Virus record (IMG/VR): IMGVR_UViG_2675903575_000014
Span: 1-28,377 of that record
Source of the DNA: a virus
Lineage: Duplodnaviria; Heunggongvirae; Uroviricota; Caudoviricetes
DNA length: 28,377 nt
Strand: one strand, 5' to 3'
Part shown: positions 5,762 through 14,651 of the stretch, one piece after another
Position numbering within the stretch: position 1 is the stretch's first letter
How the letters are laid out: each line of letters starts with the position of its first letter
The notes under the pieces: model-generated
What the model was told of the DNA's origin: nothing
Database searches by the model: none
The model's input: only the letters and a program-made list of their open reading frames with translations
Program-made: the position numbers and the translations under genes

Positions 5762-5995
5762 TCACTCACCTGAGTTTCTTTCCAGCCAGCGACGCGCGCC
5801 AGATTCGGTTTTAAACGTTTTGCTTTTGGTATACGTCATCGCAGTGAACGTGCCGTCCTGGTTGGGGAACACGCCACATACCAGAGATTCGCTGTTGCCA
5901 AGATCGATAGTATCCATGCTGACCTCATTTCCCCTTAACGCCGGGGTGGCGGAACAAAAACCTGCTGCATAGTTAAAGTTGAACCCTGCCGTCAT
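5762..5995 (-). CDS. Hypothetical small protein (77 aa; alternative start at internal Met, plus coordinate 5917)
   Basis: First ORF downstream of the putative PL; GAGG SD before the ATG at 5995. Confidence 0.45.
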   Translation of the reverse strand: MTAGFNFNYAAGFCSATPALRGNEVSMDTIDLGNSESLVCGVFPNQDGTFTAMTYTKSKTFKTESGARRWLERNSGE

Positions 5996-6095
5996 GTTCT
6001 TACGCCTCGGGCTGGCTACTTAACCCCTGACCACTGCCTGGTAACTCGAAGTATTGCCCTGCGTTCTGTGGGGCGGGGTGAGGTGGTATACCATA

Positions 6096-6124
6096 AAACT
6101 AAATCTATTTAGTTTTATAGTCAA
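6096..6124 (-). promoter_or_regulatory. Putative PL promoter with overlapping operator (CTAAATCTATTTAG at 6099-6112)
   Basis: Minus-strand -35 TTGACT (plus 6119-6124), 17-bp spacer, -10 TAGTTT; the 14-bp palindrome CTAA-N6-TTAG overlaps the spacer and -10. Confidence 0.4.
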
Positions 6125-9949: not shown

Positions 9950-10372
9950 ATGGCAAAAGTATTTACACAGAAAGAGCGAGAAAAAATTAAAGGGCAGATT
10001 GTTGATCTCGTACGCCAGAGCGGGCGAGAGACGTTACGACAACTGGAAGCTAAAACGGGGGCGACAAGATATCTGATAAGCGTTCTTGCCAGAGAGTTGG
10101 TTGCGAGCGGTGATGTATACAACTCTGGCTGCGGGTTATTCCCGTCTGAACAGGCTCGTAAGGACTGGCAAAACGCCCGCAAAAAGCTCTCAAGGGCAAA
10201 GGTGAAGAAAACGGTTGTGGTTGATCCGGACCTTATCTGGTCATTACCTGACGGAGAAATACGTCGCTACGACAGTCGTCTAAACATAATCTGTCGCGAG
10301 TGCCGGAAGAGCGAAGTTATGCAGCGCATACTGGCATTTTATCAGGGAAATGTTTGGTATTTATTGAAATGA
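9950..10372 (+). CDS. Hypothetical protein (140 aa) with N-terminal winged-helix-like segment and C-terminal CxxC
   Basis: GGGGAGGG SD before the ATG at 9950; basic; conserved nin-region position. Confidence 0.55.
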   Translation: MAKVFTQKEREKIKGQIVDLVRQSGRETLRQLEAKTGATRYLISVLARELVASGDVYNSGCGLFPSEQARKDWQNARKKLSRAKVKKTVVVDPDLIWSLPDGEIRRYDSRLNIICRECRKSEVMQRILAFYQGNVWYLLK

Positions 10373-10564
10373 CGAGATTAAAGAGCATTAGTTCAGATAT
10401 TAATTGACACTTCGGTTGCATAAGACTAGAACTACTGTGATTGGCATCTTTGTGCCAAAAACGGACATTACAGTGTATGGTTAATTCTGCCTGTCAAATA
10501 ACTTACATTCATCAAATGTTCGAAATTATGACTTAGCTCAACAATTAGGTTTAGCATGGGTCAT

Positions 10565-10596
10565 ATGACTAGAGTGCAGCAACTTTCTGCTATAAT
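10565..10596 (+). promoter_or_regulatory. Putative promoter with extended -10 (TGcTATAAT) for the KTSC gene
   Basis: TATAAT at 10591-10596 preceded by TG; AAGGA SD and ATG at 10613 follow. Lies in an AT-rich intergenic region. Confidence 0.4.
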
Positions 10597-10612
10597 TTAA
10601 TAAGGATAAAAA

Positions 10613-10840
10613 ATGCCAGCTTATGCTAATAAAGGCGGTAATTCGGGTATAGTGTTTTATGAGGTTACTCCAGATGCTATCACAGTACAGTTTAAAGATG
10701 GATGGAAATACGTTTACGATTCTACAAAACCAGGGGCTTTAACGGTCTCTAGGATGAAAGAGTTAGCCCAGGCTGGGCATGGGCTAAATAGTTTTATTAG
10801 TAGTGTGGTTAAGAAAAATTTCTCACGTAAATACCTTTAA
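10613..10840 (+). CDS. KTSC-domain protein (75 aa)
   Basis: Size and motif pattern (GIVFYEVTPDAITVQFKDGWKYVYDS...) fit the small KTSC domain family found in phages; AT-rich codon usage. Family assignment is by eye. Confidence 0.6.
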   Translation: MPAYANKGGNSGIVFYEVTPDAITVQFKDGWKYVYDSTKPGALTVSRMKELAQAGHGLNSFISSVVKKNFSRKYL

Positions 10841-10847
10841 TTTTAAT

Positions 10848-10874
10848 TGAGGGTGGGAAGGACTATCACCCTCA
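10848..10874. terminator. Hairpin between convergent genes (possible bidirectional terminator)
   Basis: 8-bp stem TGAGGGTG / CACCCTCA with an 11-nt loop between the KTSC gene (+) and the OLD gene (-); weak T-tract. Confidence 0.3.
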
Positions 10875-10993
10875 TAATTCTTCACCATTCAATCAAGAGC
10901 AATTCAAGGTGATTTTTTCTGTACATAGTCGGTTAGTTAGCACTTCGTAATTTATTGAATAGAAGGCTTTTGGAACAGTATCTTCACTCGTGC

Positions 10994-12874
10994 TTATCGC
11001 CCAGCAGATTTAGCAAGAATAGTCTCGAGCATTTCTGGTACGTTGCCTTTAGCATTGATAGTTGCTGTTCGGTAAGCTAGTTGATTTTTTGAGAGATTGA
11101 TTCCTGTAAGTGCTTCAATTTCGTTGCAGGCCTTACCCCATTCTACCCAGTTTTCAGACAAAAAAGATTCAAGATGATCCGCAAATATAGCAATATCATT
11201 AGTAACTGTTGCAGCTGGAAAATCCTCTTCGGGCATACCAAAGTATCTAAGCAGACTTCGATTCTCCATTGCGTGATTATTCCGCTCGGCATCGATAGCT
11301 CCCTGCATTTTATTTTTCGCTTTGGCACGAGCTTCAAAACCCGCATCTGCATCGAAAAGCGCGAAAACAGGAACGCCAATTGTACTTAGAATCGCATGGG
11401 CAAGTGGGATTGATGTCTTTGAACCTACAGGAACAATAGAGATGCCAGCGGCTTCAAGCGAGCCGTGTGACTTCCTGTCGCCAATTCCATAAAACACCGA
11501 TAATTCTGTTGTCCCTTCTACCAGAAAAGCTCTTTGGGCAAAGAGAGCTATTGAAAGCTGATCAGCTACATTATGGCCAAGCCTTCTATCAACTACTTCG
11601 GCATTAACAATTCCTTTTAATTTATCTTTGACATCTTCGATGGTTGCAAAGTGAACAGAAACAACGGGGTTTGCATCAGATGTTCGTGTCAATCGTCTAA
11701 TCTGGTTGAAATGGCGAGCTTCAAGAAAGTATGGGCTGTGAGTCGCATATGTTATCTGTATGCGCTTATCCGCATCTTCGGCGAGTTCTCTGAGTACTTT
11801 TGCAAATGCTTGTGCTTGGATCGGATGCTGAAATAATTCTGGTTCTTCGATCGCAAGGCAAATAACACCTTCGGTAGAGGCTGCACCAGACTGAGCTAAT
11901 AATTGGAGAGCAGAGATCAGTATCGTGCGTTGAAAGCCGTGCCCTTGCCTTTCGACTGCTGTTTCGGTTGTGCCATCAAGCACAGAAACTTCGAATGTGG
12001 TCTTGGGGGCCTTCAGTTCGATATTTGCAGGGGTAACTGTAACAGCACGACCGGGGGAGTAAGTCGTAACTACGGCGTTCAACTGCGCCGTCATATCCGC
12101 AAGTTGGGTTTCGAATTTTTCTTTGTAGACTTTCTGCTGCTGGACTCGGGATTCTTCAACAATCTTTGCAATTTCCTCATCTGCGGCGGTGCGATCAATC
12201 GAACGTTCAAGAATTCGACCAATAATACTCGCCTTGCCATCGAGAGACTCTTCACTGGCACGAAGATCTGCTGTTACCAAAACGTAATCAAAGAGACCGC
12301 TCATCTTGCCGCCACTGTTGAAACCGAAAAAGTTGGTTTGTAGGGATTCAAGTGCCTCATGTAGTAATTCTGTATGTGATGCTTCCCATGCAGTCATTGC
12401 TTCTTCGACAGCAAGCCCGGTCTTGGCAACGGGAAGATTGAATTCAGGATGTGCTTCTCGAAGAGCGTTGTACAAATCCTTCTTCGCTGTTGCTCCATTA
12501 GCAGCTTTAATATCGTTAAAATAAGGGAAACTTTTTGCGTTGGCAGAAAGCCTTTCTGAACCGTCGGGCGCGCGTAGCCTCCAGGCAGTGAATGTTGCTG
12601 CTCCCTGCGGAGCGTATTTGCCAAGTGCTTCACGATCTCTCTCAGTGAGGTTTGAGAAGGTAACCTGTACCTCAATATCTTTATCAATAGTTCCAAATGA
12701 GCAATCTTTTTCATTTAACATCCCGACCTTACCGTTGAAGAACCAATCAAGTGCTCGGAGAACAGTAGATTTACCTGCCCCATTCGGGCCAATGAACGTT
12801 GTAACGGAATCGAAGGGAATATTTATATCTGTCAAAGTACGAAAGTTTTTTATCCTAACGGAATGAATTTTCAT
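10994..12874 (-). CDS. OLD-family ATP-dependent nuclease (N-terminal ABC-type ATPase plus C-terminal Toprim; 626 aa); class 1 OLD or fused PARIS AriA-AriB-like
   Basis: Walker A GPNGAGKST (residues 30-38); Walker B-like VICLAIEEPELFQHP; H-loop-like YATHSPYF; C-terminal Toprim-like FLVEGTTE, VPVGSKTS and FALFDADAG. No adjacent UvrD-like helicase gene. AT-rich relative to flanking phage genes. Confidence 0.8.
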   Translation of the reverse strand: MKIHSVRIKNFRTLTDINIPFDSVTTFIGPNGAGKSTVLRALDWFFNGKVGMLNEKDCSFGTIDKDIEVQVTFSNLTERDREALGKYAPQGAATFTAWRLRAPDGSERLSANAKSFPYFNDIKAANGATAKKDLYNALREAHPEFNLPVAKTGLAVEEAMTAWEASHTELLHEALESLQTNFFGFNSGGKMSGLFDYVLVTADLRASEESLDGKASIIGRILERSIDRTAADEEIAKIVEESRVQQQKVYKEKFETQLADMTAQLNAVVTTYSPGRAVTVTPANIELKAPKTTFEVSVLDGTTETAVERQGHGFQRTILISALQLLAQSGAASTEGVICLAIEEPELFQHPIQAQAFAKVLRELAEDADKRIQITYATHSPYFLEARHFNQIRRLTRTSDANPVVSVHFATIEDVKDKLKGIVNAEVVDRRLGHNVADQLSIALFAQRAFLVEGTTELSVFYGIGDRKSHGSLEAAGISIVPVGSKTSIPLAHAILSTIGVPVFALFDADAGFEARAKAKNKMQGAIDAERNNHAMENRSLLRYFGMPEEDFPAATVTNDIAIFADHLESFLSENWVEWGKACNEIEALTGINLSKNQLAYRTATINAKGNVPEMLETILAKSAGR

Positions 12875-13295
12875 TTTGCTTCCCTTCCCAATATTGTGCC
12901 TTTTGATCAGTTATCTGATTAGATGTCGGAAAAATCACCCATGGGTATAGACTATGCGAAAAGCCATTGGTTGACTACCTCAATGTATCCTGTATCAACA
13001 ATGAAAATGTCCGTTCTTCGCTCACAGAGTTAGTGCGACAGCTTCGCACCAAGAGCTGACATTGTAATATCCGACAGGCTATTGCCTGTCAGTTAAGGGA
13101 GCAGTTACGTGTTATAAAAGGTCAGGCGGGATCCTGACTAGGCGTGTTTAAAGAAGTGCTGGTGGTGAGCGGGTGTTGTGTCCAATTTCCACAGAAAAAA
13201 AATCTGAGAAACTATACCCAATAGTTGTATTGAATCACTGACGAGACAGCCTCATATTTATCAGGACTGGCGTACGTCCAATTCAGGAGGTTGTC

Positions 13296-13469: not shown

Positions 13470-13560
13470 AGATAGAGAAAAGCCCCAGTTAACATTACGC
13501 GTCCTGCAAGACGCTTAACATTAATCTGAGGCTCAATCTATGAACGGCAAATCTAGGTTA
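13470..13560 (-). ncRNA. Predicted Sok-like antisense RNA of the hok locus (position approximate)
   Basis: Inferred from hok/sok family architecture. The leader (gcttgaggctatctgtctcagg ... ggcagatagagaaaagcccc) resembles, from my memory of R1, the hok mRNA 5' region. No explicit promoter was mapped. Confidence 0.25.
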
Positions 13561-13596
13561 GCCTCTTACGTGCCGAAAGGCAAGGAGAAGCAGGCT

Positions 13597-13752
13597 ATGA
13601 AGCAGCAAAAGGCGATGTTAATCGCCCTGATCGTCATCTGTTTAACCGTCATTGTGACGGCACTGGTAACGAGGAAAGACCTCTGCGAGGTACGAATCCG
13701 AACCGGCCAGACGGAGGTCGCTGTCTTCACAGCTTACGAACCTGAGGAGTAA
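13597..13752 (+). CDS. hok: Hok/Gef-family type I toxin (51 aa; MKQQKAMLIALIVICLTVIVTALVTRKDLCEVRIRTGQTEVAVFTAYEPEE)
   Basis: Single transmembrane helix followed by the conserved Cys-containing periplasmic tail typical of Hok/Gef; I recall this as matching E. coli HokD/RelF, unverified. An in-frame upstream ATG at 13540 gives a 70-aa mok-like extension. Confidence 0.85.
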   Translation: MKQQKAMLIALIVICLTVIVTALVTRKDLCEVRIRTGQTEVAVFTAYEPEE

Positions 13753-14147: not shown

Positions 14148-14165
14148 TGATGGGTATTGTGCTCT

Positions 14166-14651
14166 ATGGCTGAGATTGTTGAAGGAGTGCATTACCTTAC
14201 GGTTGATGATCTTGTTGAAATCAATCGTTCCCTAATTGAATTACAGACGCCAGATGAGCCCGTTGGTGTTCTGAGTCCAGATAACTTAAGTTCTTCTCAG
14301 GCCCGTCCCAGCATGGTTCGATGGTATGAACAGACTAATGACATGTTTGTACTGGCATCGGTATTGATTGAAAGTCTGATTCAGAATCATCCGTTTGCTA
14401 ATGCGAACAAACGAACAGCTATGATGGCTGGTTACGTCTTCTTGTTGTTGAATGGCTATGAGTTAACAGCACCAGGCGATGAAATCGTGGAAATGGCAGA
14501 GGGACTGGCCTGCAAAACCTATACTCGAGAAGATCTCGAGAACTGGTTGTGTTATTGGTCTCGCGCGTATGACAGCCGGGAATTATGTAAAACAGGCGCA
14601 ACTATTGTTTTGTATGAAACTATCAAGCTTAGAATAGAACAGCAAAACTAA
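14166..14651 (+). CDS. doc: Doc-family toxin (Fic/Doc fold, 161 aa)
   Basis: HPFANANKRTA matches the Doc signature H-x-F-x-(D/N)-(A/G)-N-K-R (P1 Doc has HIFNDANKRTA). Size is appropriate and it is followed by a terminator. Confidence 0.8.
   Translation: MAEIVEGVHYLTVDDLVEINRSLIELQTPDEPVGVLSPDNLSSSQARPSMVRWYEQTNDMFVLASVLIESLIQNHPFANANKRTAMMAGYVFLLLNGYELTAPGDEIVEMAEGLACKTYTREDLENWLCYWSRAYDSRELCKTGATIVLYETIKLRIEQQN

Follow-up and report, generated by a model that had tools for sequence, protein, structure and literature searches.

A gene for a 75-residue protein of KTSC fold and a gene for a class-1 OLD nuclease lie side by side in the window, by which the whole stretch of 28,377 nucleotides analysed here is meant, and judged by sequence comparison the two make up a mobile, low-GC cassette of 2.58 kb that is also present in genomic islands of Yersinia. 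Across genomes, the association of the small gene and its relatives with OLD and with other ATPase-based defence genes is non-random and recurrent, facultative and asymmetric. The reading preferred here, held tentatively and with somewhat less than even confidence, is that the small protein would bind nucleic acid and serve ATPase-nuclease defence modules as an accessory or regulator that they can do without.

The cassette and its prophage setting

The segment from 10449 to 13027 (2,579 bp) was recovered by blastn as one continuous stretch, 93.6% identical to loci of Yersinia enterocolitica, and comprises a conserved upstream block, the small gene, a hairpin, the OLD gene and the OLD upstream region, with 165 bp 5' of the small gene and 153 bp 5' of OLD. 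The flanks of the Yersinia loci differ and belong to CbtA/CbeA-type islands, with various helicases or RelB/ParE and HsdR beyond OLD. GC content amounts to 37-39% around the small gene, 43-48% over OLD and 50-57% in the neighbouring replication genes. Divergence of the two encoded proteins runs in parallel: in Yersinia the small protein is 93% and OLD about 96% identical to that of the window, and in Citrobacter, where a DUF2130 gene is located between the two, the values are 78% and 80%, respectively.

The counterpart of the window is a Rac/Qin-like lambdoid prophage of E. coli, with the cassette situated between its replication genes and hokD. Both the region 10373-10993 and the OLD gene are 100% identical to E. 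coli N61, in which the locus lies between DUF1627/DUF977 genes and hokD, the small gene being annotated as ‘hypothetical protein’ and OLD as ‘ATP-dependent nuclease’ (WP_044866928). Directly beyond the cassette, a HokD-type type I toxin gene (13540-13752) and a gene for a toxin of the Doc (death-on-curing) family (14157-14651) were named by analogy with N61, and the DNA from the replication genes to Q is packed with toxin and defence cargo.

The OLD gene (10994-12874, minus strand) codes for 626 amino acids and is convergent with the small gene, as had been claimed from the sequence alone and was confirmed here by its domains: AAA_15 at residues 1-383 (7e-43), OLD-like_TOPRIM at residues 444-510 (2.6e-15), and Old as the best PADLOC match of the protein (1.3e-55). 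Apart from the 75-aa gene, no ORF of at least 100 aa, hence no helicase gene, was detected in the intervals that separate OLD from the DUF977 gene on one side and from hokD on the other. With ATPase and TOPRIM in one polypeptide and no adjacent helicase or GajB gene, 10994-12874 is assigned by its predicted domains to class-1 OLD, and to neither PARIS nor Gabija. PARIS (AriA/AriB) was rejected, as ATPase and TOPRIM are fused here and the AriA model covers the ATPase part only (residues 1-384), and Gabija was rejected for want of an adjacent GajB or helicase gene. The one-polypeptide combination of ABC ATPase and TOPRIM, carriage by a temperate phage and the missing helicase partner are shared with the Old type of phage P2, and a 69%-identical copy in the P2-like Burkholderia phage KS5 is annotated as Old. 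Class-1 OLD is regarded as a single-gene system; by contrast, OLD of the window travels with a KTSC-fold gene, and related loci with DUF2130.

The small gene (10613-10840, plus strand) is an ATG-initiated ORF of 75 codons with the Shine-Dalgarno sequence AAGGA (10602-10606, plus strand) 6 nt 5' of the start codon; the exact limits proposed by the sequence-only reading were upheld. That reading had further given the gene its own extended -10 promoter, of which only the motif stood: TGCTATAAT is present at 10588-10596 on the plus strand and is the sole TGNTATAAT in the 28-kb window, but it lacks a recognisable -35, is poorly conserved and lies very close to the Shine-Dalgarno sequence. A sigma-70 scan of the plus strand returned no complete promoter, and a transcription start predicted from TGCTATAAT would fall on the Shine-Dalgarno sequence itself. 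In orthologues the motif is only partly conserved, as T(G/A)TAAT, and in a pseudogene copy it is mutated; as a promoter it is an unverified candidate, put forward by its motif only.

Further upstream, a conserved non-coding block (TCGAAATTATGACTTAGCTCAACA ... TCATATGAC) occupies positions 10520-10569 of the plus strand, 5' of the small gene; it is a candidate operator or promoter element and may be the real one. Its columns are near-invariant at 10520-10543 and 10561-10569 across 13 Enterobacterales loci, whether OLD is present or not, with coding regions of the same loci only 70-80% identical. Across genera of the Enterobacterales, the block is conserved to the same degree as the coding sequence, and no promoter consensus accounts for it. 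Since it showed no conserved RNA structure, a riboswitch or leader was dropped as an explanation, and Rfam gave no match for 10300-11100. Neither direct nor inverted repeats of significance were detected upstream of the small gene by a repeat finder. The block occurs only once in the window and has no counterpart in the OLD promoter region, and therefore nothing points to an operator shared by the two genes.

Downstream, a terminator-like hairpin (10848-10874, plus strand; stem of 8-9 bp, MFE -13.9 kcal/mol, z -1.75) starts 8 nt past the stop codon of the small gene and lies 120 nt from that of OLD. It had been described as shared between both genes; its presence was borne out but its sharing was not, as the covarying stem persists in loci without OLD, the consensus of 12 orthologous loci with or without OLD consisting of seven pairs, four of them with compensatory changes. 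The hairpin has no U-tract and was not called by a terminator scan, which found no canonical terminator. On the strength of this covariation it is attributed to the small gene and not to a shared bidirectional terminator. Block, Shine-Dalgarno sequence and hairpin accompany the small gene in OLD-less loci too, and we read the gene as a putative self-contained transcription unit. In the window, the small gene and OLD would not be co-transcribed, given their convergent orientation and the separate hairpin of the small gene.

The small protein and the KTSC fold

The small protein (8.3 kDa, pI 9.6) is basic, with ten lysine and arginine residues against five aspartate and glutamate residues and a basic C-terminal tail, and its family is marked by the Gly/Ser-rich motifs GG(D/N)SGV and AG.GLNS(Y/F)I. 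A search of 5.8 billion proteins yielded 29 homologues of 64-93% identity, nearly all of exactly 75 aa, in Yersinia, Pectobacterium, Citrobacter, Kosakonia, Buttiauxella, Erwinia and Ewingella. When species-representative genomes were scanned, 67 family loci with 39-81% identity were obtained from Proteobacteria, Bacteroidota, Chloroflexota, Latescibacterota, Planctomycetota, Elusimicrobiota and CPR bacteria, and an exhaustive profile search produced 1,698 cluster representatives at E<=1e-3 (746 at 1e-10), mostly stand-alone proteins of about 75 aa. Pairwise dN/dS against eleven Enterobacterales orthologues, OLD-less lineages included, ranged from 0.07 to 0.2. Conservation and dN/dS together ruled out a chance reading frame, and by this comparative evidence the small ORF is a genuine gene under purifying selection. 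Conservation of the ORF, on which the sequence-only reading had been made to depend, thus proved to be strong and to reach across phyla.

The protein had been called KTSC-type, a name which holds by predicted structure but not by sequence models. No match was found in Pfam, NCBIfam or PADLOC scans, no PADLOC-DB 2.0 family was hit at E<=1, and the Pfam model of KTSC (PF13619) gave no match even at E<=10, its gathering threshold of 25 bits not being reached. Weak matches to PF13619 were seen in nine of 65 family members (best E 0.014), whereas true KTSC proteins encoded by neighbouring genes score 79-94 bits against the same model. In hhalign, the 65-sequence family aligned with three true KTSC proteins with a probability of 55% (E 1.2e-4), and only over the 30-residue beta-sheet core. 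The AF2 model of the small protein (pLDDT 90.4) is of beta-beta-beta-alpha-alpha-beta topology, and annotated KTSC phage proteins were retrieved with it from a viral structure library by Foldseek (TM about 0.57, probability 0.97-0.99), ranked just after the jumbo-phage homologues described below. The predicted model has the fold of the solved KTSC protein (PF13619; crystal structure 7X8C, Methanolobus vulcani), but the family stays below the Pfam threshold and possesses motifs of its own. On the basis of this model it is best described as an unnamed sister family inside the KTSC fold and not as a member of PF13619. Run against the sequences of PDB chains, the family profile met with chance matches only, and Foldseek against the PDB gave nothing significant; the best match there, 8wiv_M, a chain of a SIR2-HerA complex, was set aside as too weak (E 0.18).

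The closest matches in the viral structure library were internal domains of phiKZ-like virion proteins, with TM values of 0.91-0.94, and these homologues, 33-42% identical to the small protein, were also found by tblastn (E 1e-4 to 3e-9). The small protein matches PHROG 17428 with 1.9e-19, and PHROG 24656 is another related head or virion group. Carriers of the domain are phiKZ gp303 (L173, 1637-3577), annotated as ‘structural head protein’, 201phi2-1 B3FJW3, PA7 I7CN88 and PhiPA3 gp375. In these phages the homologous domain is internal to structural proteins of 233-768 aa, whereas the small protein consists of the domain alone. Jumbo phages apart, the family is nearly absent from the phage collection, and a single narrow peptide pattern gave three matches in 2.9 million IMG/VR contigs.

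That KTSC proteins are largely uncharacterised, as the earlier reading had it, agrees with the searched literature, which holds no functional study of them and no paper linking KTSC to OLD; what is said there on their function consists of predictions of RNA or DNA binding only.

Neighbours of the small gene and of OLD

Neighbouring genes were called by a simple ORF procedure, and OLD was detected with an OLD profile on all fetched loci. OLD was found beside a family gene in five of 66 species genomes (Desulfacinum, Anaerolineaceae, Phycisphaerales and two Dojkabacteria) and in seven of 80 metagenome contigs, a good part of the latter being of insufficient length for a judgement, as well as in loci of Yersinia, Citrobacter and E. 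coli. All strong OLD matches lie within 2.1 kb of the family gene and none in the outer flanks, which reach 6-8 kb; roughly 90% of the family lack a nearby OLD. When the two nearest genes on each side were clustered over roughly 150 non-redundant loci, those from related genomes being not fully independent, OLD formed the largest cluster (15 loci), followed by an 815-aa LmuB-like ABC ATPase (8), DUF2130 (7, in two clusters, three of the loci with OLD too), an integrase (5), a McrB-like AAA_5 protein (5) and patatin (4). OLD-family genes occur at less than one per genome, so that the chance expectation within 2 kb would be far below 1 in 66 loci. Measured against this general rate and not against a matched control set, the co-occurrence of the family with OLD appears to be well above chance in several lineages and phyla, and the co-occurrence proposed as a check on the sequence-only reading thereby came out in its favour, with 15 non-redundant loci.

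The members linked to OLD come from dispersed parts of the family tree, their groups being 36-60% identical to one another. The commonest layout is co-directional, the family gene preceding OLD by gaps of 81-91 nt (L025, L035, L116, L160, L122), and OLD followed by the family gene as well as convergent layouts occur too. The gaps of the co-directional loci hold no consistent terminator, which is compatible with co-transcription and no proof of it. Canonical KTSC genes (79-94 bits) likewise overlap or abut OLD genes in two Dojkabacteria genomes, with a 4-nt overlap in L059 (4959-6943) and a 1-nt gap in L050 (4105-6196), and in one viral contig (L186, about 5833-6108); in L059 and L050 a conserved 345-aa gene and a family member follow the KTSC/OLD pair.

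Further defence genes were met among the neighbours as single cases. PDC-S06 (8e-281) lies downstream of the family gene in Kosakonia cowanii (L081, 6560-8695), and PDC-S60 (NACHT and phosphoesterase, 7.7e-81) upstream of it in Pseudomonas sp. Leaf48 (L037, 4522-7665), both being candidate single-gene defence systems. On a contig of a Bacteroidales MAG (L048, 2-3958), HTH (72 aa), family (73 aa), SIR2 (491 aa), HerA (597 aa) and canonical KTSC (73 aa) genes constitute an apparent operon in which successive genes overlap or are 1 to 31 nt apart. Coupling of SIR2-HerA and HerA-nuclease systems to a KTSC protein was remarked on by the Aravind laboratory as an unpublished observation (PMC9503650), of which the KTSC/OLD pairs are reminiscent, and the Bacteroidales operon fits a picture in which KTSC-type proteins accompany ATPase-effector modules; the remark, however, concerns canonical KTSC, and the window has neither HerA nor SIR2. 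Other members adjoin housekeeping genes (AlaRS, aconitase, pepT) or reside in mobile contexts such as a P4-like satellite, prophages and genomic islands.

Seen from OLD, the association is much sparser. A family gene was present at two of 80 OLD-family loci from IMG/VR, both representing the same element as the window, and a true KTSC gene at one of the 80. The 69%-identical OLD of phage KS5 stands alone, inserted between tail genes, and E. coli H6 has OLD with DUF2130 and without the small gene; OLD relatives without the small gene imply that OLD has no need of the small protein in cis.

Among 5,426 complete E. coli genomes the small gene was found in 34, three of which carry the full cassette. 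Twenty-five of the 28 intact small genes adjoin a deleted OLD, in which a 1.7-kb deletion (11223-12946; e.g., L070, NZ_CP031215) takes the promoter-proximal region and about 550 codons and a remnant of 82 aa, annotated as ‘hypothetical protein’, is left beside hokD. The deletion may be recent, since the 25 copies are nearly identical. In six E. coli genomes OLD has been replaced by a dCTP deaminase, and there the small gene is disrupted by a stop codon and a frameshift, its -10 and Shine-Dalgarno sequences being mutated as well; this decayed gene represents a single lineage, in which the replacement dates back long enough for 7% divergence. The locus is a swap site for defence genes, with OLD, deleted OLD and dCTP deaminase as its occupants.

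Possible roles of the small protein

According to the preferred reading, the small protein would bind nucleic acid, as predicted for KTSC domains and hinted at by its pI of 9.6 and basic tail, and would act as a dispensable accessory or regulator of ATPase-nuclease modules, chiefly of OLD. Its task might be to tune expression or to license or target the nuclease, and it would be neither an obligatory subunit nor an antitoxin. This reading is favoured because of the cassette, the parallel divergence, the enrichment of OLD, the other ATPase neighbours and the decay of the small gene after replacement of OLD, and because true KTSC genes overlap or abut OLD genes. It is weakened by the roughly 90% of the family without OLD and the 78 of 80 viral OLD loci without a family gene, by the 25 of 28 intact E. 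coli copies beside an OLD remnant, by family members beside housekeeping genes, by close OLD relatives that are paired with DUF2130 or solitary, by the convergent arrangement in the window, in which the two genes would not share a transcript, by the missing copy of the upstream block near the OLD promoter, and by the fact that nucleic-acid binding of KTSC domains is a prediction of the literature. From its position, the small gene had earlier been proposed as a modulator, an immunity factor or an anti-defence protein; of such a functional link to OLD the recurrent co-occurrence and the conserved ORF speak in favour, but the link would be facultative and asymmetric.

A comparison may be drawn with BrxR/CapW, WYL-domain regulators that stand in defence islands beside many unrelated systems. 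By analogy, the small gene likewise has a conserved upstream DNA block and many unrelated defence neighbours, and the family is often located just upstream of a defence gene on the same strand. In contrast to BrxR/CapW, the small protein differs in fold and lacks a WYL or HTH domain, its DNA binding is only predicted, and its gene is convergent with OLD in the window.

Next in probability, though somewhat unlikely in our judgement, is the explanation that the small protein serves a function of its own (e.g., general nucleic-acid binding or stress) and stands beside OLD only as fellow cargo of mobile elements and defence hotspots, the cassette being a historical accident of co-transfer. Most family members live without OLD, purifying selection is equally strong in OLD-less lineages, and upstream block and hairpin are conserved whatever the neighbour, all of which would be expected of such an independent gene, as would its intact state beside a deleted OLD in 25 genomes, the very diverse neighbours with integrases and housekeeping genes among them, and the behaviour of the locus as a swap site with dCTP deaminase in place of OLD. 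Mere co-transfer accounts poorly, however, for OLD as the most frequent neighbour, always adjacent or within one or two genes, for the recurrence of the association in distant lineages and in different gene orders, for the coupling of true KTSC genes to OLD and HerA genes, and for the decay of the small gene where OLD was replaced. Far less probable is an immunity factor or antitoxin which binds and restrains OLD and so protects the host or the replication of an induced prophage. The small gene does adjoin a potentially toxic nuclease, the succession of family gene and nuclease, 81-91 nt apart in L025, L035, L116, L160 and L122, is reminiscent of type II toxin-antitoxin operons, and true KTSC genes overlap OLD start codons in L059 and L050; moreover, the small gene is oriented like the replication genes, on the early-right lytic strand, so that read-through would raise its expression on induction. 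Against this, OLD relatives of 69-80% identity occur without the small gene, as do nearly all the viral OLD loci, most family members have no nuclease partner, and the genes of the window are convergent and separately terminated. Old of P2 is not known to need an antidote. A type II toxin-antitoxin pair was rejected, the genes being convergent, the small gene having its own hairpin and each gene occurring without the other, and a strict, antitoxin-like dependence on the small protein is unlikely.

Slightly lower still do we place an anti-defence role, in which the small protein would be a decoy or inhibitor used by mobile elements against ATPase-nuclease systems of the host (OLD, Lamassu-like, SIR2-HerA) and jumbo phages would deliver the domain from the capsid. 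The embedding of the domain in phiKZ-like head and virion proteins is its main support, together with the frequency of the family in mobile contexts; it is opposed by the three IMG/VR matches to the single peptide pattern and the near absence from phages other than jumbo phages, by the wide distribution in chromosomes of free-living bacteria, non-mobile contexts included, and by the frequent co-directional arrangement with the very defence gene that would be inhibited.

The accessory role preferred here can be extended to a broader proposal, which we consider doubtful as a whole: the KTSC-fold mini-proteins, that is the unnamed family and canonical KTSC, would form a widespread class, not recognised until now, of add-on subunits that sense nucleic acids or exert regulation and plug into various anti-phage systems based on ATPases (OLD, OLD-DUF2130, Lamassu-like ABC ATPases, PDC-S06 and SIR2-HerA). 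On entry, phiKZ-like jumbo phages would interfere with these systems by means of a copy of the domain carried in their capsids. OLD nucleases and the KTSC fold are already known; neither the unnamed family nor its association with class-1 OLD, DUF2130 and other ATPases appears to have been described in the searched literature. Class-1 OLD has been treated as a single-gene defence, of which triggers and control are poorly understood, and the cassette of KTSC-fold gene and OLD is a concrete two-gene construct that could reveal how the nuclease is controlled or targeted. Both the family, with its about 1,700 protein clusters, and the domain of phiKZ-type phage heads would thereby gain a first function, and should mere co-transfer lie behind the pairing, the locus would still be a clear example of a swap site for defence genes.

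A separate observation concerns DUF2130. Proteins of this family (400-540 aa), for which PADLOC has no model, are encoded directly after OLD genes of the window's subfamily, in six of the 11 close OLD relatives (69-100% identity) on viral contigs as well as in Citrobacter and E. coli H6, and OLD-DUF2130 loci comprise L079 (6621-10120), L116 (1725-4909) and L071 (3366-6658) as well as L177-L179, L182, L183 and L185; OLD-DUF2130 may represent an undescribed two- or three-gene system. At four other loci DUF2130 stands directly beside a KTSC-like gene without OLD.
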